This document shows positions 16,018 through 57,267 of a stretch of 64,000 nucleotides of DNA, piece by piece; position 1 is the stretch's first letter; each line of letters begins with the position of its first letter. This stretch comes from a virus, in IMG/VR virus record IMGVR_UViG_3300020159_001521, positions 32,001 through 96,000 of that record, one strand, 5' to 3'. A program made the translations under genes and the position numbers. A model generated the notes under the pieces. The model was not told the origin of the DNA and did not search any database. It saw only the letters and a list, made by a program, of their open reading frames with translations.

Positions 16018-16019
16018 CT

Positions 16020-17255: not shown

Positions 17256-17343
17256 ATAATTTATTATGATGTATTTTATTATTATCTTGCTTCTCTTTGC
17301 GATAAATGAAAATGTAAGAAGGTCTTCTAAATAATCAAAATAT

Positions 17344-17508: not shown

Positions 17509-17555
17509 ATATACTTATTTATGACAAAATAGATTTGATAGTCTCAAATGTATAA
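17505..17555 (+). pseudogene. Orphaned N-terminus of the DNA polymerase (MNILIYD...)
   Basis: 16-codon ORF whose ILIYD parallels VICYD preceding the ExoI DIE motif of the downstream PolB. Confidence 0.5.
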
Positions 17556-17580
17556 CATATCTTTGTCTCAAATATGTAAT

Positions 17581-23427: not shown

Positions 23428-23668
23428 AAGCGAGTATATACACAGGAGAATAAACAATGACATAAACATTGTCTACGAGTATTATTTGGAAAAGTTTGAT
23501 AAGAACAGACATAAAGGGAACATATTAGGAATACAGGAATTCTTCATATATCTAAATATGTGGGGAGATATAAATCAGATATTTGAACGCATAAGGTCAC
23601 ATTACGACCAGAAGTTTAGTATTGTAATACTGTCTGATAAGAATAACAACATATTAGGATATTTATGA
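23420..23668 (+). CDS. Hypothetical protein
   Basis: ATG 23420; overlaps both neighbours. Confidence 0.7.
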   Translation: MTKSEYIHRRINNDINIVYEYYLEKFDKNRHKGNILGIQEFFIYLNMWGDINQIFERIRSHYDQKFSIVILSDKNNNILGYL

Positions 23669-24744
23669 CACTAAGAGATAAAAGACAAGCTGAGTTTGCC
23701 AAACAATGGATTGATAAAGGTAAGTTTGGTATTCTCAATCTGTGTCCAAGGTTTGGTAAGATTCGCACTACAATTAACATCCTGAAGAAATATCGCAAAC
23801 ATGCTACAGTGTTGATAGCCTATCCAGATAACAAGATTAAAGACTCCTGGATAGCAGACTTTGAGACTATGGGATATAACAATCCTAACATCACATACAC
23901 AACACATCTGTCTATAAAGAAGTATACAGACTACCAGTTTGATCTTGTTGTTATTGATGAGATACATTTGTTATCAGAAGCTCAAATAGAAACTTGTAAG
24001 TTACTACTTGAGAGTAATAGGCAAGTGTTAGGATTGACAGGAACACTCTCTAGATCTACAGAATCTACATTGTACAATGAGCTCGATATGAAAGTGATGG
24101 CTTCCTATCCCATCGAGACAGCGATTAAAGAAGGTGTAATTGTTGATTATGAAATCACTGTTGTAAAGGTGCCTCTAGACAATGTTGTAGTTAATGACTA
24201 CAAGGGTAAGAAAAGAACAGAGAAGAAACAGTTTGACAGTTACGGATGGGTGATAGATCAATTGGAAAGACAGGGTAAGAGCACAATGTTCTTACGTCTG
24301 GCAAGAATGAGAATCATCCAGAACAGTCTTGCTAAATTAGAACGCACAAAGAGAATATTAGAAAACTTCAAGCATGAACGTATTCTTGTATTCTGTGGTG
24401 TAACTAAAATAGCTGACTCTTTAGGAATTTCTTCCTATCATAGTAAGTCAGGTGAGAAACAAATGTTTACAGACTTTGCATCAGGAGAAGGTAATCATAT
24501 GGCTGTAGTGAAGATTGGTAACACGGGTGTTACGTATAAACCACTTAACAAAGTGATTATCAATTATTTTGACAGTAATGGTGAAAACCTTGCTCAGAAG
24601 ATTAACAGATGTATGGCAATGGAGTATGATAATCCAGACAAGAAAGCAAACATTTACATCATTAGTAGTGATGAGGATGTAGAACTCAGATGGCTTAAAA
24701 AAGCATTAGAATTCTTTGATAAATCCAAAATTAAGTATATTTAA
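23665..24744 (+). CDS. SF2 (DEAD/DEXH-like) helicase
   Basis: PRFGKI (degenerate Walker A), VIDEIH, GLTGT, QKINR. Confidence 0.88.
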   Translation: MTLRDKRQAEFAKQWIDKGKFGILNLCPRFGKIRTTINILKKYRKHATVLIAYPDNKIKDSWIADFETMGYNNPNITYTTHLSIKKYTDYQFDLVVIDEIHLLSEAQIETCKLLLESNRQVLGLTGTLSRSTESTLYNELDMKVMASYPIETAIKEGVIVDYEITVVKVPLDNVVVNDYKGKKRTEKKQFDSYGWVIDQLERQGKSTMFLRLARMRIIQNSLAKLERTKRILENFKHERILVFCGVTKIADSLGISSYHSKSGEKQMFTDFASGEGNHMAVVKIGNTGVTYKPLNKVIINYFDSNGENLAQKINRCMAMEYDNPDKKANIYIISSDEDVELRWLKKALEFFDKSKIKYI

Positions 24745-25485: not shown

Positions 25486-26355
25486 ATGAGTAACATTGGC
25501 GGTAAAAAACGTGAAAGCGTACAACAGACAGATTATGCAAAGAAGGTGGGATTGTTTGAGGCTAAAGTGATAGCCATCAATCCTGATGCTGAAGAGTACA
25601 AAGAGACACTTGGTGTTGAACTTAAAGAAGACAGCAAGGCGCTTGAGTATCTTGGTGAAAGCAGAGATGGTAACAAAACTTTGAGAGTTGACTTCTGGTT
25701 AGAAGAATCTAAGAAGAAGGATAAGTTTAAAGTGACATTCTTCCTTGAGAACAAAGAGAAGGTTAATAAGGACGGTACAAAGAAACAATACATTAACAAT
25801 GTAGGAACTTGTTCTTGGGCTTCTGATGCTAATGACCTTCCTGAATGGTTTGCTAAGAGGGAATATCGTGTAGCATTCGTAGGAGAAGATGAGCTGTATA
25901 CATTCTTACAAACATGGTTGGGTAATCTTGACTATCGTGATGTAGAAACAACATTACAACTTGACTGGAAATCTCTTATGAAGGGAAATCTTAAAGACAT
26001 CAAATCTCAGATTGATGGAGAATATTCTGTAAACATACTTGCTCTTGCCACTGTTAAAAGTGTAGAGAAAGATGGTGAATTCAAAGAGTATCAGGGTGTT
26101 TACAATAAAGCATTCCTTCCTGCATATGAAATTAAGCAGTTTAGGCTTGTAGATTATTCGAAGTCTGATGTTATTACATCACTTAGGAACAAGAAGAGCA
26201 AAGATCTCAAACGTTATGAGAGGTTTGTTCTCAATGTTACAGGTGAATATGGTTGTAAAGATTTCTATGTTCTGAAGGACTTGAAAGAATACAGTGCAGA
26301 GGATAACATTGTTTCTTCTGATGCTGTTATTTCTGATGAGGATGCCTCCTACTAG
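25486..26355 (+). CDS. Putative ssDNA-binding protein (crAss-type)
   Basis: VG...KVIAINP N-terminus, acidic tail, follows Sak4-like ATPase. Confidence 0.65.
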   Translation: MSNIGGKKRESVQQTDYAKKVGLFEAKVIAINPDAEEYKETLGVELKEDSKALEYLGESRDGNKTLRVDFWLEESKKKDKFKVTFFLENKEKVNKDGTKKQYINNVGTCSWASDANDLPEWFAKREYRVAFVGEDELYTFLQTWLGNLDYRDVETTLQLDWKSLMKGNLKDIKSQIDGEYSVNILALATVKSVEKDGEFKEYQGVYNKAFLPAYEIKQFRLVDYSKSDVITSLRNKKSKDLKRYERFVLNVTGEYGCKDFYVLKDLKEYSAEDNIVSSDAVISDEDASY

Positions 26356-26375
26356 ATATTAAGACATGGTGTATA

Positions 26376-26416
26376 AAAACCCCTGTTTGAAATATAGCAG
26401 GGGTTTTTTATATTTG
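26376..26416 (+). terminator. Terminator fused to a -7 promoter box
   Basis: AAAACCCCTG...CAGGGGTTTTT running directly into TATATTTG. Confidence 0.8.
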
Positions 26417-26423
26417 TAACTCT

Positions 26424-27428
26424 ATGATACAAGGTAAAATCAAGACAACTCTAACTCCTGATGCTATACTGAACAAGATTAGTGACTATGACATATTCAT
26501 GTATTACATGCCTGATAAATCATGGAAACTAAATCAAGTGACACTATCTCCCTTTAGAAAGGAGCGCAATCCTTCCTTCTTAATTGGAACAAGAAAAGGG
26601 TATATATCTTTTATAGATTTTGCAGATACAAGCTTACGTGGTGATTGTTTTACGTTTGTAAAACTTCTCTATGGCTATGCCAAACTGGATGATGTTCTTA
26701 GGCTTATTGATAAAGACTTTGATCTTGGTATTACAACAGGAACAAGTTCAGACAAGCATAAAGAAATAACATCACAGTATAAGCAACCAGAGGTTGTTAA
26801 ACGTAACTCTCTTATTCAGGTGGTTACAAGAAAGTTCACAAATAGAGAACTTGAATATTGGAACGAATATCATCAATCTGTAGATGATTTGAGAGAGAAT
26901 AACATTTATGCAATCAAGAAGGTGTATTTGAACAAGAGCTTGTTCTATATGAAGGAAGAGGAGCTAGTATTTGGTTATTTATACGAAGGAGGACATTGGA
27001 AGATATATAGACCATTTGCAGATAAGAAAAGCAAATGGGTGCCTAACTATGTTCCTATTACAGCAATGGACGGTAAAGATGATATTAAGTATTGTAAAAT
27101 GGCTTTCATCAACAAGAGTAAGAAAGACTACATGGTGATGAAAAAAGTGTTTCCAAATAGCTGTGCTGTGCAAAACGAAGGACTTGGATGTTTCTCTACA
27201 GAGAATGTGGAATACATGAAAAGATATTCCGACATACAAATTCTAAGTTTTGATAGTGACATCACTGGTGTTACAAATTCACAACAGATAACAAAGCTAT
27301 TTGATTTTGGCTATTGCAATGTGCCCAAAAAATACCTCAAAGAAGGAATTAAAGACTGGGCTGATTTAGGGAAAGTTCATGGACTAAACGCTATCGAAGA
27401 CTATTTAAAGCAAAAAGAATTGTTATGA
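26424..27428 (+). CDS. DNA primase (crAss-type TOPRIM)
   Basis: SPFRKERNPSF, KSKKD, FDSD.TG, KDWAD. Confidence 0.88.
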   Translation: MIQGKIKTTLTPDAILNKISDYDIFMYYMPDKSWKLNQVTLSPFRKERNPSFLIGTRKGYISFIDFADTSLRGDCFTFVKLLYGYAKLDDVLRLIDKDFDLGITTGTSSDKHKEITSQYKQPEVVKRNSLIQVVTRKFTNRELEYWNEYHQSVDDLRENNIYAIKKVYLNKSLFYMKEEELVFGYLYEGGHWKIYRPFADKKSKWVPNYVPITAMDGKDDIKYCKMAFINKSKKDYMVMKKVFPNSCAVQNEGLGCFSTENVEYMKRYSDIQILSFDSDITGVTNSQQITKLFDFGYCNVPKKYLKEGIKDWADLGKVHGLNAIEDYLKQKELL

Positions 27429-42822: not shown

Positions 42823-43125
42823 ATGAAGAATCAGTTTTTCTACACGAGGAGAGAAGTTTCTGGTGGTACACCTGAAGCTCCTGAGTACAGGACATTTACA
42901 GACAGCTTTAACATGGACAAGGTTATTAGGAGTATATCTCTTGAGGACGACAGAGTGCTTGTTCTCTTGGATGATTTGCACGAAAGAGCCCAGCTTGTTC
43001 CTGATGTAGATCCTAAAACCAATAAGGTGAGAGGACAGAAGAGAGAAAGGAATGTTTATCAATCAGAAATCTATCTTGAACAATCAGACGCAAAACGTTT
43101 CTATGAGCTTACTTCCATCAATTAG
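42823..43125 (+). CDS. Conserved hypothetical protein
   Basis: FFY...DSFN..KVIRS...LDD.HE. Confidence 0.8.
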   Translation: MKNQFFYTRREVSGGTPEAPEYRTFTDSFNMDKVIRSISLEDDRVLVLLDDLHERAQLVPDVDPKTNKVRGQKRERNVYQSEIYLEQSDAKRFYELTSIN

Positions 43126-43861
43126 TTGTAAATGCATCACTTACGGACGTGTAGACTTTCTGGAGGAATCTATTTATAGCTTCCTTCAGCAAGACTACCA
43201 AGGAGAAAGAGAACTTGTTATTGTAAATGACTATCCTTTACAGAAGCTTGTATTTGACCATCCTGATGTAAGAATCTACAATCTTGATACAACCTTTCCT
43301 ACAATAGGAGAAAAGGAAAACTTCATCCTTGAGAAATGTAGATTTGATGTAATAGCTGTTTGGGATGATGATGATGTGGCTATGCCTAATCACCTGAACA
43401 ATATTGCTAAACACTTCGTTCCAGGATCAAATCTATTACATTGGCAAAAAGGAGTGCTGTTCAACGGTGACAACATTGAAGCTATTACATCATTGGGTAA
43501 TTCTGGTATTGTATATAGTAGAGATGCTTGGGAAGCTGTAGGAAGACATCCTCTTGAGAATGCTGGATATGATATGACTCTAGTGGTTAGAATACATGAA
43601 CTTGGACGAGATAAGGTTGTATTAGCATCTCCTGCTGATGAGGAAGTGAGCTGGTTCTATATGTGGGGAGGAAGAGGCTATCACATGAGTGGTCTTGGTA
43701 CAGACGATGATACACGTCCAAATGCTATACAAAGGCATTCTGCTCACGTAGAAAGACTCAGACAAATGGGACAGATTCCTACAGGAGAAGTGAAGCTCAT
43801 TCCCAATTGGACAAGGAATTATAAACAAATATTAAAAGAGTTCACTAATGCACATAAATAG
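43103..43861 (+). CDS. Glycosyltransferase family 2
   Basis: ITYGR..LEESI.SFL.QDY..ELVIVND; WDDDD motif. Confidence 0.88.
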   Translation: MSLLPSISCKCITYGRVDFLEESIYSFLQQDYQGERELVIVNDYPLQKLVFDHPDVRIYNLDTTFPTIGEKENFILEKCRFDVIAVWDDDDVAMPNHLNNIAKHFVPGSNLLHWQKGVLFNGDNIEAITSLGNSGIVYSRDAWEAVGRHPLENAGYDMTLVVRIHELGRDKVVLASPADEEVSWFYMWGGRGYHMSGLGTDDDTRPNAIQRHSAHVERLRQMGQIPTGEVKLIPNWTRNYKQILKEFTNAHK

Positions 43862-44504
43862 TATAGAAATTGATTCTACTAACTCTAGAACAGACTTATG
43901 TAATTTAGGAACACTCTATCCTACAGATAAATCTCCATACAATGAGAATTCTGGATTACATAAACATGCATACACTTCTATATATAATCTTCTTTTCTCA
44001 CACATAAGGTATAATGATGTGAAACTAGGAGAAGCTGGTATATTAGATAACATGTCTATGTTGTCTTGGAGAAACTACTTTCCAAATGCTAAGTTGTATG
44101 GCTATGAATGGTTTGATGATAGATTACATAAAGCTTTGGGAGATCGTTTACATAACAGTGTGTACATGAAAATGAACATAGAAGATGTAAACTCAATAGA
44201 AGAATGTTTACGTTCATCAGGAAGTGAGTTTGATATATTGATAGATGACTCAACACATGTATTTAAAGATCAAATCAACTTCATCAATGTTGCTTATAAA
44301 CATTTAAAGCCTGGAGGCTTCTTGATTATTGAGGATATATTCATCTCTGAAAGTGAGAAACGATATGAAGATGCTATCGATCATCTAAAAGAGTATTTCT
44401 CATCAGCTACATTTATATTTGCAAATCATGCTTTGAAATACTCTCCAGGATGGAACAATGATAAACTATTGGTATTAAACAGAAACGATAAACCATGTTC
44501 TTAA
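43848..44504 (+). CDS. Class I SAM-dependent methyltransferase (sugar O-methyltransferase-like)
   Basis: TDK...H.Y...Y; E.GI; FDILIDDSTH; LKPGG.LIIED. Confidence 0.85.
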   Translation: MHINSIEIDSTNSRTDLCNLGTLYPTDKSPYNENSGLHKHAYTSIYNLLFSHIRYNDVKLGEAGILDNMSMLSWRNYFPNAKLYGYEWFDDRLHKALGDRLHNSVYMKMNIEDVNSIEECLRSSGSEFDILIDDSTHVFKDQINFINVAYKHLKPGGFLIIEDIFISESEKRYEDAIDHLKEYFSSATFIFANHALKYSPGWNNDKLLVLNRNDKPCS

Positions 44505-45031
44505 ATATAATCACGCCCTGTTCAAGACCTAACAATCTAGAGGCCATCTCTAATAGTATCAACATTCCACCTGATCATTACAGGTGGATTGTTGTTTTTG
44601 ATTCTACAGAAATACCAGAAAACATCCCTCATAACTGTGAACCTTACGCAATAAAGGTGAATGGTAGTGTATTTGGTAACGGTCAACGTAACTATGGAAT
44701 AGATTTAGTTAAACACGGACATATCTATTTCAATGATGATGACACAACAATTGTACCTGTTCTTTGGGAAAATATAAAAGATTTAACTGAACACTTCATA
44801 TCATTCAGTCAAATTGAGAAGGATGGGAGGATGCGACTAATTGGGAAAACAGTAGGTGTAGGAGCAATAGATAGTCACAACTTCATTGTATCTAAAGAAA
44901 CAGTAGGTGACATAAGGTGGGAATTAGACAAGTATGATTCTGATGGATTCTTTGCATACGAGTGTTATAGAAAAGCAAATAGCATAATTCATATACCTAA
45001 GGTGCTCTCTGTGTACAATTCATTAAAATGA
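44495..45031 (+). CDS. GT-A fold glycosyltransferase
   Basis: IITPCSRP, QRN, IYFNDDD, IDS. Confidence 0.8.
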   Translation: MFLNIITPCSRPNNLEAISNSINIPPDHYRWIVVFDSTEIPENIPHNCEPYAIKVNGSVFGNGQRNYGIDLVKHGHIYFNDDDTTIVPVLWENIKDLTEHFISFSQIEKDGRMRLIGKTVGVGAIDSHNFIVSKETVGDIRWELDKYDSDGFFAYECYRKANSIIHIPKVLSVYNSLK

Positions 45032-45058: not shown

Positions 45059-45196
45059 TTATTTAGAAAGACGCTTTTGCTTCATGGGCCACATAGGACT
45101 CTTGAGTCTGAGTTTTGTATCAGCTTCCTTCATATAGTTTCCCTTTGGATTGGGATTCTTCACTTTAGGAGCTTTCTTTGGCTTTCCTGATTTCAT
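45059..45196 (-). CDS. Small Lys-rich protein (45 aa)
   Basis: MKSGKPKKAPKVKNPNPKG... Confidence 0.65.
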   Translation of the reverse strand: MKSGKPKKAPKVKNPNPKGNYMKEADTKLRLKSPMWPMKQKRLSK

Positions 45197-45540
45197 TTAC
45201 AGCCGTATTTACATTTACCCATCTTAGCACCACTCTTTGCTTTCATCTTGCCACCATTCTTAATAACACCACGTCCTTTAAGAATGTCAGCTTTAGTGAT
45301 TTTACCATCCTTATTCAGGTCAGGGAATGAAGAGGCTTTACCACCATCTTTCATTTTCTTCTTAGGCATAACAGCCTTAGGCTTAGCAACAGATGATTTA
45401 GCAGATGCTACTGACTTTGCCATATTACCACTTGCATAATTCGACTTAGCTTTTGGAATCATCTTACCAGGATACATTTCACTTTCTACCATTCCTTTAG
45501 GAACGTTCTTGCCAGTTTGGGCTTTTTTAACTTTTGCCAT
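45193..45540 (-). CDS. Lys-rich protein with EF-hand-like loop
   Basis: FPDLNKDGKITKADIL; repeated K.GGK. Confidence 0.8.
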   Translation of the reverse strand: MAKVKKAQTGKNVPKGMVESEMYPGKMIPKAKSNYASGNMAKSVASAKSSVAKPKAVMPKKKMKDGGKASSFPDLNKDGKITKADILKGRGVIKNGGKMKAKSGAKMGKCKYGCK

Positions 45541-45558
45541 TATGTTTAATTTAATTGA

Positions 45559-45849
45559 TTAGCAATTCCATTTTCTCAAAGACTTATTGATTCTGCTATT
45601 TGGATCATTGGCAGTTTTGGCAGATGTCAGTTTCTTCTTCATTCCTGACATTCTACTACAAAATGATTTACGTCTTTTAGCAGATTTGCTTCCCTTCTTA
45701 AGCTTAGAAGGCTTTGTTGTAACAGCTGTCTTTAATTTACTGCCAGGATTAGCAGCTCTATAGCTTGCAACACCTTTAGCATTGAGACCTCCAGATTCAG
45801 ATTTTCCTTCTTTCCTGGTCCAGGCTTCTGATTTTTTAACTGTAGCCAT
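45559..45849 (-). CDS. DUF6321-like basic protein
   Basis: AWTRKEGK..GGLNAKG...RRKSFCSRM.GM...WNC. Confidence 0.8.
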   Translation of the reverse strand: MATVKKSEAWTRKEGKSESGGLNAKGVASYRAANPGSKLKTAVTTKPSKLKKGSKSAKRRKSFCSRMSGMKKKLTSAKTANDPNSRINKSLRKWNC

Positions 45850-46039
45850 GTCTTCCAAAGGTTATATTGTTCTTTACAATAATGTCTTTATGCCTGAACT
45901 GCCACATTTCACCAGTGGTATTTATAATCACTGTATATATTGTGTCAGATTCATGTCCGTAGTCTGTAACTAACCAAATGATTCCATCACCTTTAGGTGT
46001 TGTCACCTCTACACGGTTGGATGGTTCGAATATTATCAC
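45836..46039 (-). CDS. Hypothetical protein
   Basis: V.TPKG.G...DYG.E...TGE.W...N.TFGR. Confidence 0.75.
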   Translation of the reverse strand: MIIFEPSNRVEVTTPKGDGIIWLVTDYGHESDTIYTVIINTTGEMWQFRHKDIIVKNNITFGRHGYS

Positions 46040-46218
46040 TTCTTCTTCATCTTCTTGAGAGTCTGAGCAAGGCGTGCTCTTTGACCCATTTTACCAGGCT
46101 TCTTAGCAGCAGCTGCAAGTTTACCAGCAGGGATCTTTTCTCCCTTTTTAACACCAAGAGATGAGCGTAGGGCACCAGGCTTCTTAATAGCCTTCTGTAT
46201 CCATTTCTTGTCAGCCAT
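46036..46218 (-). CDS. Small Lys-rich protein
   Basis: KWIQKAIKKPGALR...RARLAQTL. Confidence 0.8.
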   Translation of the reverse strand: MADKKWIQKAIKKPGALRSSLGVKKGEKIPAGKLAAAAKKPGKMGQRARLAQTLKKMKKK

Positions 46219-46220
46219 GG

Positions 46221-46553
46221 TTATTTCTTTTTAGCAGACTTCTTAACTATCTTACCACCCTTCTTCATATTACCAAGAGTTCTTTCCTGAACCTTTGTCC
46301 AAGCTCCTTTAGGATCAACCATAGGGGCTTTAACCTTCTTACTAGCTACACCACCAGCTTGCATTTTGCTTGCAAGACCTTTTACAAAAGCCTTACCACG
46401 CTCTAAACGTGTATCTCTTTCAATCATTCTGTTAGCAACACGTTCTGCTCTTTCAGGATTCTTATCTGAGATTCTACCAAGTCTTTTATATTGACCTTTC
46501 CTCAAAGATGGTGTGGCACTAATGCCAACTTGAGCTTTCTTTGCCTTTGCCAT
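46221..46553 (-). CDS. Lys-rich protein
   Basis: KKAQVG, MQAGG, MKKGGK. Confidence 0.8.
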   Translation of the reverse strand: MAKAKKAQVGISATPSLRKGQYKRLGRISDKNPERAERVANRMIERDTRLERGKAFVKGLASKMQAGGVASKKVKAPMVDPKGAWTKVQERTLGNMKKGGKIVKKSAKKK

Positions 46554-46555
46554 AG

Positions 46556-46954
46556 TTATTTCTTTTTACCTTTGTATTTATAATCAGGATTGTCCTTGTG
46601 CCATTTCTTTGTAGAAGCAACGCCTTGTTTAACTGTCTTAGCTCTACCAATTTTTGTGAGGTTGATGGTGTCCCATTTACCTTTGTCTTTGGTAGGATGG
46701 TTTACAATTATGTCTCCTTTGGTAGCTTTAGTACTATTTTTCTTAGATTTATAAACTACGTGCTTCTCACCACCAGCATTTACTGTCACCTTACCACCAC
46801 TCTTTAATGTACTTCCTTTAAATGGTCCTTTCTTTTTAACAAGAGGACCATCAGGAACAGGAGTGATGTTACCACCACGTTTAAGAACTCCCTTACCAAC
46901 ATAAGCTTCTGCTTTCTGTGGATTGTACACTTTGGTTTTAGGAATTCTAGGCAT
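46556..46954 (-). CDS. Lys-rich protein
   Basis: LKRGG, LKSGGK. Confidence 0.8.
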   Translation of the reverse strand: MPRIPKTKVYNPQKAEAYVGKGVLKRGGNITPVPDGPLVKKKGPFKGSTLKSGGKVTVNAGGEKHVVYKSKKNSTKATKGDIIVNHPTKDKGKWDTINLTKIGRAKTVKQGVASTKKWHKDNPDYKYKGKKK

Positions 46955-46956
46955 GG

Positions 46957-47100
46957 TTATTTACCTTTAGCTTTAATCTTCTTTTCTTGCTTGAGCATTG
47001 CCGAATTTGGCTTCTTTCCACTTCCTTTATTGGCACGAATATTGTCCCACAAACCACGTTGTGAAACACTTCCATCTTTACGTTTAATCATTTGTTTCAT
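46957..47100 (-). CDS. Small Lys-rich protein (47 aa)
   Basis: MKQMIKRKDGSVSQRGLWDNIRANKGSGKKP... Confidence 0.7.
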   Translation of the reverse strand: MKQMIKRKDGSVSQRGLWDNIRANKGSGKKPNSAMLKQEKKIKAKGK

Positions 47101-47402: not shown

Positions 47403-47984
47403 TTACCATGTTGCTATTGCTACACGCTTCCATGTATTGGTTGCTGTACAAACGTATATGTGGTTAGCATCAATTCTTATTTCTCCAAGAGTTCCTGTTG
47501 CTGCTGCTGTTGCAGGAGCTGTGTTTAGTGCTGAGAGATTGTATTGTGTACCTCTTATTGTACCAGCTACATCTAATTTATATCCAGTATTGCTATCACC
47601 TGTTCCTATACCTACATTACCATCAAGAAATATTCGTACATTCTCAGTGTTGTTTGTTCCAAACACCAATGGGTGATTACTAAATGTACCTATTGCAAAT
47701 GGTAAACCTTGTGTAAATATTAATGTAGCAGTGTTTCCAGCAAAACCAAATCTTGTATTTCCTGACTGACCAACATATGAAGTACTTGATGTGAAAGTAC
47801 TTATTATTAGACTAGACGTTGCACTTATGTTGCTATTTCCTAAAGTGTTTGGTCCAACGTATTTTGGAATAAAATTAGTTGTTCCTGTTCCTATAGAACT
47901 ACCAATTAAGTCATCAAGATTCAACCATCCTTTGTATCCTTTCTGTACCTTTTCCCAATAGCCTGTTTTAATAAACGTTGGCAT
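47403..47984 (-). CDS. Short fibre/decoration protein
   Basis: GNVGIGT...KLDVAG fibre motif; C-terminal G..GEIR.D..YVCTATNTWKRVA; N-terminus shared with 57270-58235. Confidence 0.75.
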   Translation of the reverse strand: MPTFIKTGYWEKVQKGYKGWLNLDDLIGSSIGTGTTNFIPKYVGPNTLGNSNISATSSLIISTFTSSTSYVGQSGNTRFGFAGNTATLIFTQGLPFAIGTFSNHPLVFGTNNTENVRIFLDGNVGIGTGDSNTGYKLDVAGTIRGTQYNLSALNTAPATAAATGTLGEIRIDANHIYVCTATNTWKRVAIATW

Positions 47985-47989
47985 ATATA

Positions 47990-48274
47990 TTAATTTAATT
48001 CTATTTCAAAAACAATTGTTGCAGAACTCTTAATCGACTTGCTCAAATTGAGCTTTATGTGTAAGAGATTGTGGAATTTTAATATCTCCTCTAGAAGCAT
48101 ATCGTTGTACATGGGTACAGATGGTGCTAATCTGAAATGCAGAGAATTAGGATTTCTTGTCACTTCCAATGTACACAGCTCATCAACTGATTCAATTATT
48201 CCCTCTAGATGTGCCAGATAAGCTATTTCATTATCTGGCAACACCTTAGGAAAGAATCTTGTGTTAATTTGCAT
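47990..48274 (-). CDS. Hypothetical protein
   Basis: 94 aa in operon. Confidence 0.75.
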   Translation of the reverse strand: MQINTRFFPKVLPDNEIAYLAHLEGIIESVDELCTLEVTRNPNSLHFRLAPSVPMYNDMLLEEILKFHNLLHIKLNLSKSIKSSATIVFEIELN

Positions 48275-48687
48275 TAGCTCAGTGTTAGCAGATACTTTGT
48301 TTTAGCAGCTTCGCCAGATAGTGCATCAGCCAGATTTGCTATATCGTGATAGGAATTACCTTCAGCATAGCTCTTTAAACTAGATGAAAAGCTAAGAAGT
48401 TCACTAACAACAGCATCTGGTGTAGAGCTTGTCAATTGTTCCATCTTAACTGTTCCAGGTCTTTTTCCTGTATATCCCATAAGCTTCTCTATAACACCAT
48501 CTTTAAAATCATGTACATAATCGTACAATCCTCCAAGAGCTTGATGCGTAGCGTAGCTGCTTGTCTGCCAATGCAATAAGTGTAGCTGCTCATGAAAATA
48601 CGTAAGCTTGCTAGCAATTGCTTCCAGAGACATTTCTTGAGGAGAAGACTTAATCATCTCCTCAGGAAAAAGTGATTTTAATGCCAT
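48274..48687 (-). CDS. Ferritin/Dps-like protein (DUF5856-like)
   Basis: LHLLHWQT.SYA.HQALG.LYD...D..IE...KYLLTL. Confidence 0.85.
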   Translation of the reverse strand: MALKSLFPEEMIKSSPQEMSLEAIASKLTYFHEQLHLLHWQTSSYATHQALGGLYDYVHDFKDGVIEKLMGYTGKRPGTVKMEQLTSSTPDAVVSELLSFSSSLKSYAEGNSYHDIANLADALSGEAAKTKYLLTLS

Positions 48688-48711: not shown

Positions 48712-49107
48712 CTAAGCCTTCAAGATGTTGTCATACTTAACTCTCAAATAACCAATGTTGTGGTCAAACACTACAAAACTAGGATTGAGTTCCATTGCTT
48801 GTTGAGCAAGTACACCTTTTGTAGGATTGTTAGCAACACCAAGAGATACAGCTTTAGCATTCCATTCCCAAGTGTATTCAGGAAGGCTTCCTATAAAGTT
48901 ACCTGTAGCTCTAATGTTTCTTTTCAGACGGATATCTGATACAGTGGTAGTTGTAGTGGTGGTAGGAGCACAGCACTCATATGCTTGTATCTCAATCCAT
49001 TTACCCACCTTAGGCATCTTCTTCCTGAGAATAAGGCTCCCAGGCACCACTCGCCCAGAACCATCAAAGCGTACATACGCTTTCAAATCTTTACGATTGT
49101 TTCCCAT
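48712..49107 (-). CDS. Poly-Thr micro-protein fused to a peptidase S74 intramolecular chaperone
   Basis: CCAPTTTTTTTV followed by SDIRLKRNI...Y.WEW...GVLAQ...P..V...GYLRV.Y. Confidence 0.85.
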   Translation of the reverse strand: MGNNRKDLKAYVRFDGSGRVVPGSLILRKKMPKVGKWIEIQAYECCAPTTTTTTTVSDIRLKRNIRATGNFIGSLPEYTWEWNAKAVSLGVANNPTKGVLAQQAMELNPSFVVFDHNIGYLRVKYDNILKA

Positions 49108-49125
49108 TTTACTTAATTTTTGCTT

Positions 49126-50145
49126 TTAATAATTGAAATTGTATTTCTGTTTGACATCAAACATTCGTGTTACGTAGTAGTGATTACAAAGTGTTTTACT
49201 GAGTTCACTATTCAGCACTTCCTCTAGATGAGGATCTTGGAAAGGGTTTTTTCCTGAATGATAGAGTCCTTTGTAGAATGTTGGAATTGCTCCTTGGTTA
49301 TTAGCTACAATGCCTGCATTGTGTAATATACCCACCCTATCTAGTTTCTCTATTCCATCTGAACTCCATGCGAATTCCATTTCAGGAATCACTCTTGTTT
49401 CTTTCTCTCTGAGCCACAGATTCCAAAGCACAGCCCACATATCAGCACACCAACTCTGGAACCCTTTGTTCTCATTCTCAAAGAACTGTCTATTTACGTT
49501 CATTAAATATGACCTAATCATCAGACAATGACTTGTCACATTATCCCAAAACCCTGCATCTATGTTCTTAAGGAGATATTGTGCTCCTCCAGAATGTAGA
49601 TTGTTCTTTTCACATATCTCTCTTGTTATTCCAACTAAACTTGTGGTTTCAGAGAGAATATCTGTTTTCTCGTAGTCTTCCAGTTTTTCAGGAAGAACAT
49701 CTTTTATCTTACTATCAAAATATGATGCACTTATGTAACTGTTTGTATCAGACAGATAACAAATATCATCATCTATATAAGCGTCTATGTTAAATCTTTC
49801 TGTGAATACGATGTCACAATCGCAATAGAAGATTGCCTTATTCACCATCTCTGGATGTTCTTTGAAGTATTTCATCAAAGTGTAAGGACGTAATACAGGA
49901 ATGTAGAGGCTAAATGTTTTGCTTATACCATCTACATCTTTGTAATATGCAAATTCAGATTCTGGATAGAGAGCTTCCAGGTCTTTCCATTTCTCATTGA
50001 AGTCTCTGAAGTTTGGTGTGAAGACAAGAACAATAGCCTTGTCACTCTTACCAATCATCTTTAAACTCTCAAGCCATGTGTGCACTTGCCAAACGTAGTA
50101 ATCATCATCTGGCTGTACGCAGACGAATTTAAGATCCTTTGCCAT
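49126..50145 (-). CDS. GT-A fold glycosyltransferase (GT95/GT96-like)
   Basis: YxWQ, Y.P..RPY, FYCDCDIVF (DxD), GGAQYL, WCADMWA, H.AG. Confidence 0.7.
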   Translation of the reverse strand: MAKDLKFVCVQPDDDYYVWQVHTWLESLKMIGKSDKAIVLVFTPNFRDFNEKWKDLEALYPESEFAYYKDVDGISKTFSLYIPVLRPYTLMKYFKEHPEMVNKAIFYCDCDIVFTERFNIDAYIDDDICYLSDTNSYISASYFDSKIKDVLPEKLEDYEKTDILSETTSLVGITREICEKNNLHSGGAQYLLKNIDAGFWDNVTSHCLMIRSYLMNVNRQFFENENKGFQSWCADMWAVLWNLWLREKETRVIPEMEFAWSSDGIEKLDRVGILHNAGIVANNQGAIPTFYKGLYHSGKNPFQDPHLEEVLNSELSKTLCNHYYVTRMFDVKQKYNFNY

Positions 50146-50172
50146 ATGTAATTTTGGTTTATTGTTTCCTTA

Positions 50173-50313
50173 TTAAGGAGCCACAGTTGTAGTGGTGGTA
50201 GTAGTGGTAGCAGGTCCTGCTGTTATTTGAATCAGTCTTTCTAACTTCTTAGAAATCTGCCAAAGCAAATTAGACTCGTTGCTCCAACCAATTTGTTTAT
50301 TAGGAACTGCCAT
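50173..50313 (-). CDS. Poly-Thr micro-protein (46 aa, not in ORF track)
   Basis: MAVPNKQIGWSNESNLLWQISKKLERLIQITAGPATTTTTTTTVAP; N-terminus homologous to 55798-57267. Confidence 0.85.
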   Translation of the reverse strand: MAVPNKQIGWSNESNLLWQISKKLERLIQITAGPATTTTTTTTVAP

Positions 50314-50348
50314 AATTAAAAGTTTTAACGAAGAGAAGAGGGAGGCTA

Positions 50349-50522
50349 TTAAGCCTCTCCTCCTTTGTCTTCTTCTTTGAGAATTTTCTCACTAACGGTG
50401 TTAAAAGCTGTGATAGCTGCAAGTGAGTCGTTTAAGGATTTAAACAGTCCTTTTTCACTTGCGAGGTCAAGAATCATTTTGATCACCTCAAGAGCTTGCT
50501 TTTCTGTCATTTGTGGATTCAT
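50349..50522 (-). CDS. Small hypothetical protein (57 aa)
   Basis: MNPQMTEKQALEVIK...; TATATTTG box on minus strand at 50548-50555. Confidence 0.7.
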   Translation of the reverse strand: MNPQMTEKQALEVIKMILDLASEKGLFKSLNDSLAAITAFNTVSEKILKEEDKGGEA

Positions 50523-51166: not shown

Positions 51167-54100
51167 TTAGTATATTTTATAATAGTTGTTTATGTTGGAT
51201 TGTATAGGGATTCTAGAAGGTAATTGATTTGTGGTATACAATATAATCTCTTGCATTTCTCCATTGAATGTAAATGACCCACCAACACCACCAAGAGTAG
51301 CAAATGAAGATGCCGTATTAGATGTAGTTCCGTCTGTCAAGAAAGATGTATTTGATCCGTCAATTACCCCATTAACATATTGGAAACCATCGCTCGTTAA
51401 GTATTGAATAGCGGAATAAAGTAAAGCTTGAGCATTTATCGATATCGACCCAGTAAGAGCACTAACTGTATCTCCGTCTAATCTTCTAGCATCTATTTTA
51501 TATACAGATCCATCTATATACGGACCAAATCTAACAGTACCCGAAGAAGTACTGAAGAATATTATTACCTTAGCTATAGCAGCAGCTGGGTTATTGGTAA
51601 CAACTGAGAACATATTAGCATATCCAACATTCTGAAGTGTATTCAATCCATTTGGAATATTGAAGTTGTCATTAGTTCCATCAAAGAAAACAGCTGGTTT
51701 TCCGTTCTCCGTATCCACCACCCCAGCATTCACTATCCTCGGTTGGTTAGCAGCAGTTCCTTGAACAGCATTTCTAGCATTACCACTCTGATCATACCAC
51801 GTTGTTACAAATCCACTGTTAGCACCTACGAAGGCTACTAATGAGGCTATATCTAAATCACCCCCGAACGTGCCATATATATCCCTCTCTACGTTATCAC
51901 TACTCCTCCTCACTCTGATCAATGGACCAGTGTAGGCAGAGCTGAGGTTGCGGAGAGAATATGCTGCACTAGCTCCACTGTAGTTATCAAGTAGTGCTGT
52001 TCCGTTTCCTTGCCAGTAGATTTGGTAGTAGGAATTGATGTTGGAAGATATGGTTGGTCTGTTGGATAATTGGTTTGACATATATAACACAAGCTCAGAA
52101 GCTTCTGCGTTTGATCTTTCTAATGCAAGACCTCCTATTAAATTAAATGACGAAGAAAGAGATGTGTACGTTAATGGACCACTAAGAGAAAGTTGAACTC
52201 CGTTTAGAAATGCATTTGCAGATGAGCCTCTAGAAAAACCGCTTGTCAGATTAAATGTAGTTGATAGTTCTGAAACTGTATAATAATAGTCAGTACTACC
52301 ATCATTTTGAAGATATAAATTACCATCAGAATATCTACCAAAGAATACTGATGGTGGTCCAGTAACTGAACCAACTCCAAATCCTATAGCAGACGGACTG
52401 TTACTTCTTGCAGTATAAAACATAGACCAATCCAAATTGCTTGTTTCAATGTTCGGCATAGTAAAACTATCCGTCCCATCAAAGAACAAAGATGGTTTAT
52501 TCCCCTCACTCTCCACTCCTCCACTGTTAACTATTCTTGGTTGAGAAGCTGCTGTGGCTTGAATGGCATCTCTTCTTTGAGAGACGGTGGTGGTGGTGGC
52601 TGTGTAGGGTTGTAAAGTACCTTCACTTAGTTGAGCGCCCCAAATGTATACTCCCGAACCAACAACTCCAAGATAGCTAAAAGTAGATCCGTTTGTCAAT
52701 AGCCCACATTGAATAATGTGAGCACCAGTTTTGTTAGTGTTTCCAGTTACTGTACATCTGTACCATCCATCTCCAACTGGAGTTATCGAATTTCCCAAAT
52801 TTACACTAGCTCCAGTGGCATTACTTGAAAATACGGTTCCATTAGATAGATTAAATACGCATCCAAAGTAATCAAATGGGGCACTACCTAAAAACATACC
52901 AACACTAGCAAAAGTTCTTTCTGCAGCTTTCAAATAAAAAGATACAGTAAATGTAGATGCTGTTGCTATGCTATATGTCTGCCCAATCCAGTGCTGGTCA
53001 TTTACAGCAGTTTCATTAAGTTTATCAGCAGTTAGTGTTCCATCGGGAGCAGCTGTACTGTCTTGAGTGATAGATGAATTAGATTTACTCCAACTAGCAT
53101 TCTCAAATGTTTGACTCTGCAACAACAGATTCTGATAGTTATTATCTTGTGTGTACCACTTAGTGACAAAAGCATTTGCGCCATTGACAGCTGTTGTGGT
53201 GGTTGGGATGTAGGGTTGGAGGATGCCCGTGTTTAGTTGTGCTCCCCATACATATATCCCCGAACCAGCGGTTCCAATATAAAATCGTTGAAATGAATTA
53301 TCAAGTATTTCTATTTGTACAGAATGATTTCCAATGGTGTTAGTGTTGCCAGTGACAGAACATCTGTACCAGCCATTCCCAACAGACTGAATAGATGAAG
53401 ATATAAAAACTGCAGCTGCATCACTTCCATTTTTATATACAGTACCATTTGACAAATCAAAATAAGAGTTAAAGTTGCTATATGTGCCGCTACTTAGATA
53501 AAAAACTACAAATATTTTTGACCTCTCTGCTGCTTTAGCATAAAATGACAATGTGTAAGTAGATGATGCAGGAACATTAGATCCTTGATATGCAGCATGT
53601 TGCCCACCAACAGCAGTCTCCGTAATCTTATCAGCAGTAAGTGTACCATCGGGGGCTATAGTAGCATTTGCAGTTATAGTACTACCAACTTTAGTCCAAA
53701 CTGCATTCGTAAAATCCTCCGAGTTCGTCAAAAGATTCTGTCCACCCGTAAATGACAACAGAGAAGCTACATCCAAATCACCACTGTATGTACCACCAAT
53801 ATCTGTCTCTGCGTTGTCAGAGCTTCTTCTCACTCTTATTAATGGTCCTCTGTATGAAGAGGATAGGTTTCTTAATGAATAAGCAGCTGCTGCTCCCCCG
53901 AACTGATCCAATAACCCACTACTAGCACCAGTCCAATGGGTTTGGTAATAAGCTCCTATGTTACGTTCGATATCTGCTCTAGTGGATGTACGGTCTGAGT
54001 TGTATACAATGATCTCACCAATCTCACCGCCCATAAAAATTTCATTAGCATTTAGTGAACCTCTTGTTGCTCCAATTTGAGTAACTGGATTTACAGAACC

Positions 54101-55789
54101 AGCAACAGTAGTTGAAACAGATGCCCCAGCTATAGAATCAGCAAAAGCAGTTATTGAAGAACCCGTAAATATACCACTAGCAACAAGATAGTTTTGTAAT
54201 GAAGTATAAGCAAAAGCAGTTGGAAATGTAGTTGCATCAGCTCTTTGGGCCTCAAATCTTTTATTCGAGTTATTCAAATAAAGCAGAGCATCTCTAGAGA
54301 AGTTAGAAGAAGAACCTCTACTATAAATAGTGTTTGTAACAACGGAAGGAATAGTGTTAACTGCTGTAGAGAATATAGACCAAACTGGTAGAGCTATATC
54401 TGTAACACTTAAGAAATCATCCACACCATCAAACCTTATCGAAGCCTTCCCATTCTCTCTCTCTATAACTCCACCACCAACAATTCTTGGTTGGTTGGCA
54501 GCTGTAGATTGAGAGGCGTCTCTTCTGAGGATGGCTGCAGTTGTGGTCACTTGATAGGGTTGTAGCCAACTAGATTGAGAGAGTTGAGCGCCCCAAATGA
54601 AAACGCTTTCTGAAGCAAAAAGTTGAAACGAAGCAACAGAAGCTACACCAACAGTTAAACATGTTGTACCAACATAAAGTCTAACCCACCCATTTGGCAA
54701 TATTTGTCTACCAAAAAAAGCACAACTAGAAGAAATTGCATCTGTATCAAAGTTATAAGTGACTTGAGGATAACCAACAGAAGCACCCCATTTAGCGTTC
54801 ATTTGAGCCAAATCGCCACTTAGATCTAAATGTAAAGATACAGTTGATGTAGATGTTTTCTTTATATAAGCAGAAAATGTGTAAAAGGATCCAGCTGTTT
54901 TAGTATAAGTCTGACCTAATCTAGAAACAACTCCCGAAGTATATGTTATAGTGTCTGCAGTTAGAGTGCTGTTTGGTGCTGTTGTAGAATTTGGAGTGAC
55001 TGTAGCTATCGAACCAAACCCAGCATTATTAGCCCACGCAGCATTTTCAAATTGCTCAGAAAATGTCAACAAATTCTCTCCATTACTATCTTGTGTATAC
55101 CATTTAGTAACAAATCCATCCCCCGAACGGGCAGCACTTATGGTCACTTGATATGGTTGAGCTGTGATGCCAGCGTTTAGTTGGGCGCCCCAAATTAATA
55201 AGTCAGCCGACGAAGTGCTGCTTCTTACTATTGATTGAAAGTTACCAGCAACAGCAACAAATGAAAATGTAAATCTTTGCCAGTCATTAGTAGCAGTAAA
55301 ATTTCCGCTTACTATACTCCCATTACACGGAGCCATAGCAAACTGCTGGTTAACACCAGTGTTTGACTTAGCCCAAACAGACATTGTGTAACTCTGCCCA
55401 ACAGTTAACGCAATATTTTGATCTAACCAATAAGGTAAAGCTGTACTAAGAAGCCTAGAAGCTGTATTCCCACCTAATGGATCTGTCCCAGCATTTGCGG
55501 TTATTGTAACACTTGCCTTACCCCAGCTAGCACTTGTAAATTCTTGACTAACCCTAAACAGATTCTCATAACCAACAAAGTTCATCAGAGCTGTTTCATC
55601 AATTGCACCTCCACTAAATCCAATATCTTGTTCTGCATTATCAAATGATCTTCTCACCCTAACAGCAGATCCACCGTATGCACTGCTTAAGAGCCTTGTA
55701 GAATAGGCTGCTGCAGCTCCTCCAAATGTATCAAGAGGAGGAACTATATTCCCACGAGAAGAAGCAATTATGCCTAATGTTAAACTCAT
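51167..55789 (-). CDS. Large fibre/spike protein with repeated lectin-like domains
   Basis: Three AAAAYS.R.L...VRRS.DN.E.DI...WY.Q...QPRIV modules and four NLL..S..F....W...WGAQL modules; likely start MSLTLGIIASS. Confidence 0.85.
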   Translation of the reverse strand: MSLTLGIIASSRGNIVPPLDTFGGAAAAYSTRLLSSAYGGSAVRVRRSFDNAEQDIGFSGGAIDETALMNFVGYENLFRVSQEFTSASWGKASVTITANAGTDPLGGNTASRLLSTALPYWLDQNIALTVGQSYTMSVWAKSNTGVNQQFAMAPCNGSIVSGNFTATNDWQRFTFSFVAVAGNFQSIVRSSTSSADLLIWGAQLNAGITAQPYQVTISAARSGDGFVTKWYTQDSNGENLLTFSEQFENAAWANNAGFGSIATVTPNSTTAPNSTLTADTITYTSGVVSRLGQTYTKTAGSFYTFSAYIKKTSTSTVSLHLDLSGDLAQMNAKWGASVGYPQVTYNFDTDAISSSCAFFGRQILPNGWVRLYVGTTCLTVGVASVASFQLFASESVFIWGAQLSQSSWLQPYQVTTTAAILRRDASQSTAANQPRIVGGGVIERENGKASIRFDGVDDFLSVTDIALPVWSIFSTAVNTIPSVVTNTIYSRGSSSNFSRDALLYLNNSNKRFEAQRADATTFPTAFAYTSLQNYLVASGIFTGSSITAFADSIAGASVSTTVAGSVNPVTQIGATRGSLNANEIFMGGEIGEIIVYNSDRTSTRADIERNIGAYYQTHWTGASSGLLDQFGGAAAAYSLRNLSSSYRGPLIRVRRSSDNAETDIGGTYSGDLDVASLLSFTGGQNLLTNSEDFTNAVWTKVGSTITANATIAPDGTLTADKITETAVGGQHAAYQGSNVPASSTYTLSFYAKAAERSKIFVVFYLSSGTYSNFNSYFDLSNGTVYKNGSDAAAVFISSSIQSVGNGWYRCSVTGNTNTIGNHSVQIEILDNSFQRFYIGTAGSGIYVWGAQLNTGILQPYIPTTTTAVNGANAFVTKWYTQDNNYQNLLLQSQTFENASWSKSNSSITQDSTAAPDGTLTADKLNETAVNDQHWIGQTYSIATASTFTVSFYLKAAERTFASVGMFLGSAPFDYFGCVFNLSNGTVFSSNATGASVNLGNSITPVGDGWYRCTVTGNTNKTGAHIIQCGLLTNGSTFSYLGVVGSGVYIWGAQLSEGTLQPYTATTTTVSQRRDAIQATAASQPRIVNSGGVESEGNKPSLFFDGTDSFTMPNIETSNLDWSMFYTARSNSPSAIGFGVGSVTGPPSVFFGRYSDGNLYLQNDGSTDYYYTVSELSTTFNLTSGFSRGSSANAFLNGVQLSLSGPLTYTSLSSSFNLIGGLALERSNAEASELVLYMSNQLSNRPTISSNINSYYQIYWQGNGTALLDNYSGASAAYSLRNLSSAYTGPLIRVRRSSDNVERDIYGTFGGDLDIASLVAFVGANSGFVTTWYDQSGNARNAVQGTAANQPRIVNAGVVDTENGKPAVFFDGTNDNFNIPNGLNTLQNVGYANMFSVVTNNPAAAIAKVIIFFSTSSGTVRFGPYIDGSVYKIDARRLDGDTVSALTGSISINAQALLYSAIQYLTSDGFQYVNGVIDGSNTSFLTDGTTSNTASSFATLGGVGGSFTFNGEMQEIILYTTNQLPSRIPIQSNINNYYKIY

Positions 55790-55797
55790 ATAATGAT

Positions 55798-57267
55798 TTA
55801 TACAGTTATGTCTCCAAATAAATACCACTCATCTGTTCCTATCTTCACAAGAGAAGCACCGCTATATTGAGCAGCGAGTTTAAGAGCTCCAAGAGCACTT
55901 CTCACAGTTACACCTGCTCCTGGAACAATTGATGTTTGTCCTGCTCCATATTGAGCTATGTCTATTTTTGTTCCTATTGGGAATGTTATTGAGCTGTTTG
56001 GTGGAACAGTGAGAGTGTTTGCTGCTCCAACGTTTGTTTCAACCAACTTACCTCTATCAGCCAAAGCAAGTGTATATGATGCAGTTTGTCTGTTTGTAGT
56101 GATGGTTTCTCGCAACACTCCATTTATTAACAATCCACCACCTAGAAAATTATCAGCTGTACCTTGTCCATATAATCCCCAGCCTGTGTTATTAGACCAT
56201 TCAATACTCCTCCAATCTGCTGCAGCGGTCAATGTAGGTTGAACATATAAACCTCTTGTTATACCATTTGCCCCTCCTGCTTGATTAATAGTAGGATTAA
56301 GCAATGCCAAAATTGTAGTAGCGTTTCCACTTGTAGGAGCAAAAGTTTCAGTTCCCTGTATAACTATATTACCACCACTTGTTCTTACAACATTTGCACT
56401 ATGGTTTGCAAGTAATACATTCGTTGCATTAAAATATGTTTGTAAAGTGATTACATTACTACTCGCCCAATTTGCTTCTAATAAAATATTTTGATTTTGT
56501 TGTGCCCTTAAAGTATTTGAGTTAAGAGTAGGAGTTGTTAATGAACTTCTTGAAAATGCATCACCATTATTAGATATTTGAAATTGGGTAACTCCACCTA
56601 AATTTCTGGTAATAAAATGTAATGTATTTAAATTATCTGTTCCTGTAATATTTAAAATATCAGTAAAAAGACTTGTTCCATTAACCTGCAATCTCTGACC
56701 ACCGTCTAAGAATGTACCTCCGTTTTGAAGAACTACATTTCTTGTAATACCGAACATAGTCATTCCTACTGTGTCATTTGTACCGAATGTTAATGGTGCA
56801 GTTGTTCCTGTTAAGAATGTAAGACCGTTTACAAGTGATGAACTTGACCGAAACCTTGCTTGATTAGCTGATAATGTACTGTGATTTGAGCCGAATACTT
56901 GTAATGATAAACCTCCTACATTGCTTAATATAAGTATATCTGAGATAGCACTTGTTCCTGTCGATGGATTACTTATAAGCATTCTTACAGTTCCATCAAC
57001 TGTTTTTACTATACTTAAATCATTTGAAGGCGTATTAGTCCCAATCCCCAACCTCCCTTGAGCATTATCCCAAAACAGATTATTAGATCCTGTAATGTTT
57101 GTAGCAGCATTCCAGAATGTCACTTGACCATTTGCACCACCACCTGTAATAGTGCCACCACCACCACCACCGCCTGAAGCAGCTGTTACAGCAGCGAGTC
57201 TATCAAGTTGCATTGATATATTGTATAGGAGATTAGATTCCTGACTCCAACCTATTTGTCTTGGCAT
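55798..57267 (-). CDS. Fibre protein
   Basis: RLGIGTNTP motif; C-terminal YTL.L.D.GK...FPIGT.I.I.Q.GAGQ...W.LFGD. Confidence 0.85.
   Translation of the reverse strand: MPRQIGWSQESNLLYNISMQLDRLAAVTAASGGGGGGGTITGGGANGQVTFWNAATNITGSNNLFWDNAQGRLGIGTNTPSNDLSIVKTVDGTVRMLISNPSTGTSAISDILILSNVGGLSLQVFGSNHSTLSANQARFRSSSSLVNGLTFLTGTTAPLTFGTNDTVGMTMFGITRNVVLQNGGTFLDGGQRLQVNGTSLFTDILNITGTDNLNTLHFITRNLGGVTQFQISNNGDAFSRSSLTTPTLNSNTLRAQQNQNILLEANWASSNVITLQTYFNATNVLLANHSANVVRTSGGNIVIQGTETFAPTSGNATTILALLNPTINQAGGANGITRGLYVQPTLTAAADWRSIEWSNNTGWGLYGQGTADNFLGGGLLINGVLRETITTNRQTASYTLALADRGKLVETNVGAANTLTVPPNSSITFPIGTKIDIAQYGAGQTSIVPGAGVTVRSALGALKLAAQYSGASLVKIGTDEWYLFGDITV

Follow-up and report, generated by a model that had tools for sequence, protein, structure and literature searches.

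A candidate phage-encoded O-glycosylation cassette linking a soluble GT-A enzyme to poly-threonine tags in a crAss-like phage

Glycosylation of the phage particle by the phage's own enzymes has been shown, in the literature found, only for mycobacteriophages. For Che8, Rita and others, this literature describes phage glycosyltransferases, glycans reported at the C-termini of capsid and tail-tube proteins that shield the particle, and an altered recognition of the glycosylated particle by antibodies (PMC11256854, PMC12619734). In phage crAss001, the head fibres gp21 and gp29 dock in hexon pockets via their N-terminal 38-58 residues (PMC10172136). Here, we report on a 64,000-nucleotide stretch of viral DNA (hereafter, the window), which comprises bases 32001-96000 of a 113,680-bp record with direct terminal repeats (IMG/VR record IMGVR_UViG_3300020159_001521), and on three adjacent minus-strand genes that it contains. 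The phage is crAss-like, and it encodes, just beyond the window, a protein of 517 residues that gives a match to Pfam Crass_capsid (E 5e-28). A prediction made earlier from the letters of this DNA (hereafter, the original prediction) had proposed that a glycosyltransferase O-glycosylates runs of threonine (Thr) in two tiny virion-docked proteins encoded on either side of it. Comparative evidence supports this proposal, and we consider it probable that the locus is a phage-encoded protein O-glycosylation cassette for virion proteins.

The three genes are all present where they had been placed, and their main features could be read from the sequence as described. The central gene (49126-50145, minus strand) encodes a protein of 339 residues with the motifs RPY, D109-C-D111, GGAQYL and WCADMWA. 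Upstream of it, an open reading frame (ORF) of 46 residues (50173-50313, minus strand) specifies a candidate acceptor, in which an N-terminal module of ~30 residues (anchor A, KQIGW..NLLWQISKKLERL) is followed by GPA-T8-VAP and the stop codon; its T8 run (50185-50208, minus strand) is written ACC ACT ACT ACC ACC ACT ACA ACT. A terminator-like hairpin, a consensus match only, lies just upstream of this ORF (50342-50357, minus strand). On the downstream side, a protein of 131 residues (48712-49107, minus strand) reads CCAP-T7-V, then SDIRLK and a Peptidase_S74 domain, and its T7 run (48943-48963, minus strand; codons ACC ACC ACT ACA ACT ACC ACT) stands directly 5' of the predicted S74 cleavage site. 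These two runs, in the genes that flank the enzyme, are the only ones of at least seven Thr in the 113.7-kb genome. Since Thr accounts for 6.8% of residues and only ~2e-4 such runs are expected in a proteome of 35,000 residues, chance does not explain them. The argument from mixed codons to selection at the protein level was borne out as well, since the 136 runs recovered in relatives are written by 119 distinct DNA strings. The ORF of 46 residues matches no Pfam or PHROG family; its frame and its N-terminal module recur in dozens of relatives, which marks it as a conserved gene.

The linkage between enzyme and Thr runs was examined in 80 related viral contigs (62-98% identity), among which 74 loci had enough upstream flank, 79 were scored on the downstream side and 25 had full flanks. 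An ORF with at least five consecutive Thr was found within 1.3 kb upstream in 63 of the 74 loci, usually as a protein of 44-65 residues ending with T7-9-x-x-P, and a Thr-run ORF starts within 400 nt downstream in 63 of the 79. The three residues that follow the runs in relatives are AAP (37 cases), VAP (35), ATP (16) and PAP (7), and this tally defines T(n)-[A/V]-[A/T]-P as the preferred unit.

This association extends to unrelated phages. The enzyme was detected by tblastn in 77 records of cultured phages, all below 60% identity, and its linkage with Thr-run genes spans phages of Enterococcus, Lactococcus, Lacticaseibacillus, Lactiplantibacillus, Clostridium and Chryseobacterium. In phiFL1A, the enzyme gene begins at the stop codon of the gene for the major tail protein, whose last 23 residues form a Thr/Ser tail. 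Runs of T7-12, some followed by VKP or VAP, are carried by the head protein, the tail protein and gp08 of PLE3, and further Thr runs are found on gp074 and gp075 of Semele, on the tail tube of phiCTP1 and on a tail protein of bIL285; in the Chryseobacterium phage MA9V-3, two proteins encoded ahead of the enzyme contain long Thr/Ser tracts. Five phages encode tail proteins homologous to that of phiFL1A (50-60% identity) and devoid of a Thr tail, and a profile search for the enzyme matched none of these five phages versus all five positive controls. At the scale of whole genomes, 1-6 ORFs with at least five consecutive Thr are present in each of seven enzyme-positive phages and in none of six enzyme-negative ones. 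The genome of crAss001 has neither a homologue of the enzyme nor a run of at least four Thr. The conserved linkage that the original prediction had named among its checks thus holds both in the clade and in unrelated phages, and relatives without the enzyme do not have the runs.

The enzyme itself belongs to phrog_4417, a family annotated as of unknown function (E 1.5e-50, residues 5-328 against positions 1-288 of the 293-position profile). It matches no Pfam family at E<=0.1, and searches of the PDB by sequence and by profile returned nothing meaningful. Its homologues are abundant, with 2166 metagenome matches and 755 representative clusters at E<=0.001. The AlphaFold2 model (predicted local distance difference test, pLDDT, 97.6) consists of a single GT-A Rossmann-like alpha/beta/alpha domain, and Foldseek aligned it to 256 PDB chains at E<=1e-3, the top ones being all GT-A. 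With very high confidence, the enzyme is therefore predicted from its model to fold as a GT-A glycosyltransferase. The nearest solved folds are glycogenin (VIA Z 14.1), the catalytic domain of UGGT (13.9) and Skp1 Gat1 (13.9), then LgtC (13.4), WbbM (13.3), GlyE (13.2) and A64R of PBCV-1 (10.7), and the best matches among viral models are an uncultured phage protein and orf49 of Lactobacillus phage LP65. Likeness to CAZy GT8 (Pfam Glyco_transf_8) concerns the fold only and does not amount to sequence-profile membership: none of 68 homologues matched Glyco_transf_8 at E<=1, and ten further homologues matched no Pfam family either. Eight residues (Y81, D109, D111, Y137, F258, H275, K292 and Y324) are invariant in the 68 homologues, down to 30% identity; among them, D109 and D111 of the DCD motif and H275 of an HNAG motif may form a metal site. 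A retaining mechanism is our guess, by analogy with the GT8-like neighbours. On reading the sequence, there is no evident signal peptide or membrane segment.

The original prediction had likened this enzyme to the plant families GT95 and GT96, a likeness that stands as a lead only. Among its 30 nearest named language-model clusters, 21 carry the hydroxyproline arabinosyltransferase family HPAT (PF23452) in 10-58% of their members, but the profile searches did not follow: HPAT weakly matched one of the 68 homologues (E 0.013), a scan of this genome and of five other phages with its hidden Markov model (HMM), made without positive control, gave no hit, and no solved HPAT or SGT1 structure turned up in the fold searches. 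As to the concern that the enzyme might resemble glycosyltransferases of DNA bases or of lipopolysaccharide (LPS), it is unlike DNA-base transferases and membrane LPS/Gtr enzymes; it appears to be a soluble GT-A protein, several fold neighbours of which glycosylate proteins. A role as DNA or LPS transferase was rejected on account of these neighbours, of solubility, of the position among structural genes and of co-variation with Thr tails.

The two flanking proteins share their N-terminal modules with larger proteins. In the 46-residue protein, residues 6-27 share 68% identity with the N-terminal end of a fibre-like virion protein of 489 residues (55798-57267, minus strand), in which anchor A (HMM E 6e-14) precedes a Gly linker and then the fibre body, and which has PHROG matches to minor tail and virion structural proteins. 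In the 80 loci, the HMM of anchor A recovered 141 ORFs, of which 73 exceed 70 residues and carry collagen-like or globular heads. The 131-residue protein starts with another module of ~48 residues (anchor B, KAYVRFDGSGRVVPGSL..KPKVGKW.EI.AYECC), continues with AP-T7-V and ends with a Peptidase_S74 chaperone (PF13884, residues 57-112 against positions 1-57 of 58, E 8.2e-7, 29.7 bits for a cut-off of 22). Anchor B (KAYVRFDGSGR...ECC) was found by its HMM in 150 ORFs of 58-1292 residues, often followed by Thr-run linkers. The sequence S57-DIRL-K62 displays a Ser and a Lys in the spacing S-x4-K, which we take to be that of the S74 cleavage dyad of endosialidases. The downstream protein of many relatives has nothing beyond the Thr run and measures 58-80 residues; by the predicted self-cleavage at S57, the 131-residue protein would likewise be reduced to an anchor with a Thr tail. 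By their domain composition, both neighbours are minimal, headless members of two modular anchor-linker-head families. The docking of their anchors on the virion, which the original prediction had assumed, gains indirect support from these modules in common with fibre-like proteins; we modelled this hypothesis on the docking of the crAss001 head fibres (PMC10172136).

Candidate substrates would extend beyond the two micro-proteins. A protein of 389 residues, which may be capsid-associated (26075-27244 of the whole record, outside the window, minus strand), carries a Thr/Ser tail of ~22 residues closing with LIP, and this tail is kept, with interchange of Ser and Thr, in 68 of the 68 orthologues recovered. 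It has no match in cultured phages and no Pfam family. The order of genes encoding 517 (capsid), 321, 243 and 389 residues parallels that of gp32, gp33, gp34/35 and gp36 in crAss001. The AlphaFold2 model of the 389-residue protein is poor (pLDDT 57) and aligns weakly, over its full length, to chain a of 7QOF (Z 8.7, root-mean-square deviation 11.8 Å), whose 333 residues equal the length of gp36, the auxiliary capsid protein of crAss001 (PMC10172136). Two other proteins encoded on the minus strand, also outside the window, are candidates too: a 110-residue protein with a Thr-rich C-terminal tag followed by AAP (23636-23968 of the whole record) and a 1554-residue protein of a PHROG 'virion structural protein' family, with two C-terminal Thr linkers between Cys-containing repeats (15468-20132 of the whole record). 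Within the window, a repetitive fibre of 1553 residues (51167-55828, minus strand), with TTTT linkers at 52586-52597 and 53192-53203, is a possible but weak further acceptor.

The original prediction had also suggested that three plus-strand genes of the window could extend and cap the glycan. The first encodes a GT2-family glycosyltransferase of 269 residues (43052-43861; Pfam Glycos_transf_2, PF00535, E 2.2e-8, 34.6 bits for a cut-off of 23.3), a candidate extender that is present in 14 of the 25 full-flank relatives. Over its full length, it aligns to the middle domain of P0238 (28% identity, E 1e-12), a protein of 904 residues in which an N-terminal homologue of the 339-residue enzyme is fused to GT2 and Gly_transf_sug domains. 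Other homologues of the enzyme are fused to O-FucT, GlcNAc-transferase and F5/8 type C domains (P0231, 1369 residues) or to Methyltransf_24 domains. The second gene (43848-44504) encodes a 218-residue protein resembling S-adenosylmethionine-dependent methyltransferases (phrog_21658, E 4.7e-12; weak Pfam Methyltransf_31/24 matches below the curated cut-offs), which might O-methylate sugars; its comparison with the fused methyltransferase domains was marginal (E 0.025). The third (44495-45031) encodes a 178-residue protein with a DDD motif, which has no Pfam or PHROG match and no similarity to P0238. Among named language-model clusters, those nearest to it consist of viral GT2 proteins (PF00535 in 65-100% of members, score 0.97-0.98), and it is probably a small GT2-like glycosyltransferase. 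The assignment as glycan extenders is thus favoured for the GT2 by its fusion to an enzyme homologue elsewhere and for the 178-residue protein by its GT2-like neighbours, but the link of the methyltransferase is weak.

Taken together, these data are consistent with the following scheme. The 339-residue protein would be a soluble, metal-dependent GT-A enzyme (DxD and C-terminal His) that acts in the cytoplasm of the infected cell as the initiating O-glycosyltransferase and transfers a sugar from a nucleotide-sugar to the hydroxyls of Thr runs in the context T(5-12)-[A/V]-[A/T]-P. Its acceptors would be the runs of the two headless mini-proteins encoded next to it, each made of a docking module and a Thr tail, the 131-residue one gaining its free Thr end by S74 self-cleavage; the C-terminal tail of the 389-residue protein and the runs of the 110- and 1554-residue proteins would be further acceptors. 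The GT2, the probable small GT2-like protein and the methyltransferase (43052-45031) would extend and trim the glycan, and a mucin-like layer of glycan would result on the capsid and at the fibre docking sites. In this scheme, we infer the sugar transfer itself, the donor sugar, the stereochemistry, the docking of the anchors on the virion and the biological role of the glycan. Tentatively, and with rather less than even confidence, we would go further and propose that crAss-like phages and many phages of Gram-positive hosts build their own mucin-like glycan coat through a portable poly-Thr tag, T(n)-[A/V]-[A/T]-P. 'Headless fibres', made of an anchor and a glycosylated Thr tail, would then share docking sites with protein-headed fibres, the glycan being outermost, and the auxiliary capsid protein would add several hundred glycosylated tails per capsid.

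Several observations weigh against a cassette dedicated to virion glycosylation. Thr-run neighbours are absent in some close relatives (11 of 74 loci upstream, 16 of 79 downstream), and in a more distantly related second clade of the enzyme, a protein with at least five consecutive Thr was found within 3 kb in only 38 of 80 loci. In the contigs L316, L324 and L329 of this second clade, we also noted proteins of 161-256 residues with uninterrupted runs of 19-26 Thr, encoded less than 2 kb from the enzyme gene. The anchors show no sequence similarity to the N-termini of gp21 and gp29 of crAss001. The comparison of the 389-residue protein with gp36 by hhalign profiles was not significant, and for this reason its assignment as a gp36-like auxiliary capsid protein, suggested by synteny and by a poor model, is tentative. 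The genes of the methyltransferase and of the 178-residue protein are each present in only 4 of the 25 full-flank relatives. In addition, the literature search yielded no paper on the enzyme family or on poly-Thr tags in phages, and no biochemical or mass-spectrometric evidence. Finally, among 80 viral loci picked solely for a run of eight ACN codons, the enzyme was encoded within the retrieved stretch in only 4. At least seven consecutive Thr in an open frame were present in 66 of these 80, and some of the contigs were giant-virus bins; poly-Thr is not exclusive to the enzyme system, and other Thr-run systems or a distant location of the enzyme are likely in such loci.

This last sample, in which most poly-Thr loci lack the enzyme nearby, would suit an explanation in which Thr runs are flexible, protease-resistant spacers and the enzyme glycosylates a host envelope polymer (LPS, teichoic acid), a capsule or the phage DNA. 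Thr/Pro-rich linkers are common in fibre proteins, and the GT2, methyltransferase and GT2-like genes lie on the strand opposite to the cassette, at the end of the replication block. We nevertheless think this explanation improbable, since the runs located at the extreme C-terminus of the 46-residue, 389-residue and tail proteins have nothing to space, and since, where the enzyme is absent, homologous tail proteins and entire genomes lack the runs. Besides, the enzyme appears soluble and is encoded amid structural genes without a Gtr-type membrane partner, and no base-hypermodification enzyme was found among the replication genes tested. The resemblance to glycogenin, the best fold match and a protein-priming enzyme, brings in another explanation: the mini-proteins, which are tiny and devoid of a head domain, could be primers or carriers of a polysaccharide or glycopeptide with a non-structural purpose (decoy, signal or matrix) rather than parts of the virion. 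The occurrence of the enzyme domain in multi-glycosyltransferase fusions fits with this, but the N-terminal modules are common to fibre-like structural proteins, tags occur on major capsid and tail-tube proteins in other phages, and one of the mini-proteins has an S74 chaperone typical of trimeric fibres. On balance, such a role is quite unlikely. As for micro-ORFs and Thr runs being non-coding or slippage artefacts beside an unrelated enzyme, the 46-residue ORF is indeed very short and matches no family. This view is scarcely credible, since the frame, the length class of 44-65 residues, the N-terminal module and the C-terminal x-x-P are conserved while the DNA varies, and since the mixed codons and the rarity of runs of at least seven Thr expected by chance also stand against it; slippage as such was rejected on account of the mixed codons, the conserved frames and the conserved anchors.

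The genomic setting of the cassette can be outlined as follows. Within the window, the portal and the large terminase are found at 124-4742. A plus-strand block encodes replication functions (polymerase, helicases, primase, ribonucleotide reductase, UvsX and PhoH), and the enzyme cassette sits within a minus-strand late block, amid fibre genes. The cassette is adjoined by a gene for a DUF5856 or 'starvation-inducible' (Dps-like) protein (48274-48687, minus strand), which is kept in 77 of the 80 related loci. Between the GT2 module and the fibre genes (45193-47100, minus strand) are encoded small, very lysine-rich proteins of 47-132 residues, two of which are kept in many relatives. A 193-residue protein (47403-47984, minus strand) resembles the ends of phage tail and fibre proteins in its C-terminus, and 125 nt of its gene share 72% identity with a tail-fibre gene of the Synechococcus phage S-WAM2. 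This 125-nt fibre match is the only DNA similarity of the region to cultured phages.

If virion glycosylation by this cassette is true, the phenomenon would be widespread, as it would concern phages of Enterococcus, Lactococcus, Lactobacillus, Staphylococcus, Clostridium and Chryseobacterium together with an abundant environmental crAss-like lineage. It would bear on phage stability, on adhesion to mucus or to matrices of polysaccharide, on recognition by host defences and the immune system, and on therapeutic and dairy phages. From a biotechnological perspective, a short genetically encoded tag and a single soluble enzyme might be used for cytoplasmic O-glycosylation.

To conclude, the proposed system can be set against those already described. 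With glycogenin, Skp1 Gat1 and GlyE, the enzyme has in common a GT-A fold (Z 13.2-14.1 over ~220-240 residues), the DxD motif and a distal His, and these enzymes act on cytoplasmic protein acceptors. GlyE, from the pathway of pneumococcal serine-rich-repeat adhesins, acts on Ser-rich repeats, an analogous low-complexity substrate made of hydroxy-amino acids. The phage enzyme differs from the three by its low identity (7-11%), the lack of a Glyco_transf_8 match, ~80-100 extra residues and its predicted Thr-run acceptor. In plants, the O-glycans of extensin-like proteins are initiated, on runs of hydroxylated residues, by HPAT (GT95, PF23452) and by peptidyl-serine alpha-galactosyltransferase (GT96); both are Golgi membrane proteins acting on hydroxyproline or Ser, whereas the phage enzyme appears soluble and is linked to Thr runs. 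The chlorovirus PBCV-1 likewise encodes a GT-A enzyme, A64R, which glycosylates the viral capsid protein in the cytoplasm, and the multi-domain fusions of glycosyltransferases and methyltransferases of this virus resemble those of the enzyme family studied here. Its glycans are N-linked, with atypical sites of Vp54 as acceptors, and this system has a eukaryotic host and no Thr-run tags. With crAss001, the phage shares the gene order after the major capsid protein, and its two short-anchor families with variable heads recall the two types of head fibre; crAss001 differs in lacking the enzyme and the Thr runs, as well as any sequence similarity of gp21 and gp29 to the anchors or of gp36 to the 389-residue protein. 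The proposed system follows the logic of the mycobacteriophage one, whose primary study is reportedly that of Freeman et al. (2023) in Cell Host Microbe: both combine phage glycosyltransferases with terminal tags on virion or virion-like proteins. Hosts and lineages are different, the initiator would be a phrog_4417 protein, the acceptor would be a pure Thr run of the form T(n)-[A/V]-[A/T]-P, and some of the acceptors would be stand-alone mini-proteins. The cassette is thus best filed as a candidate variant of phage virion glycosylation, the novelty of which would lie in an uncharacterised initiating enzyme, a poly-Thr acceptor tag and stand-alone mini-proteins made of an anchor and a tail.

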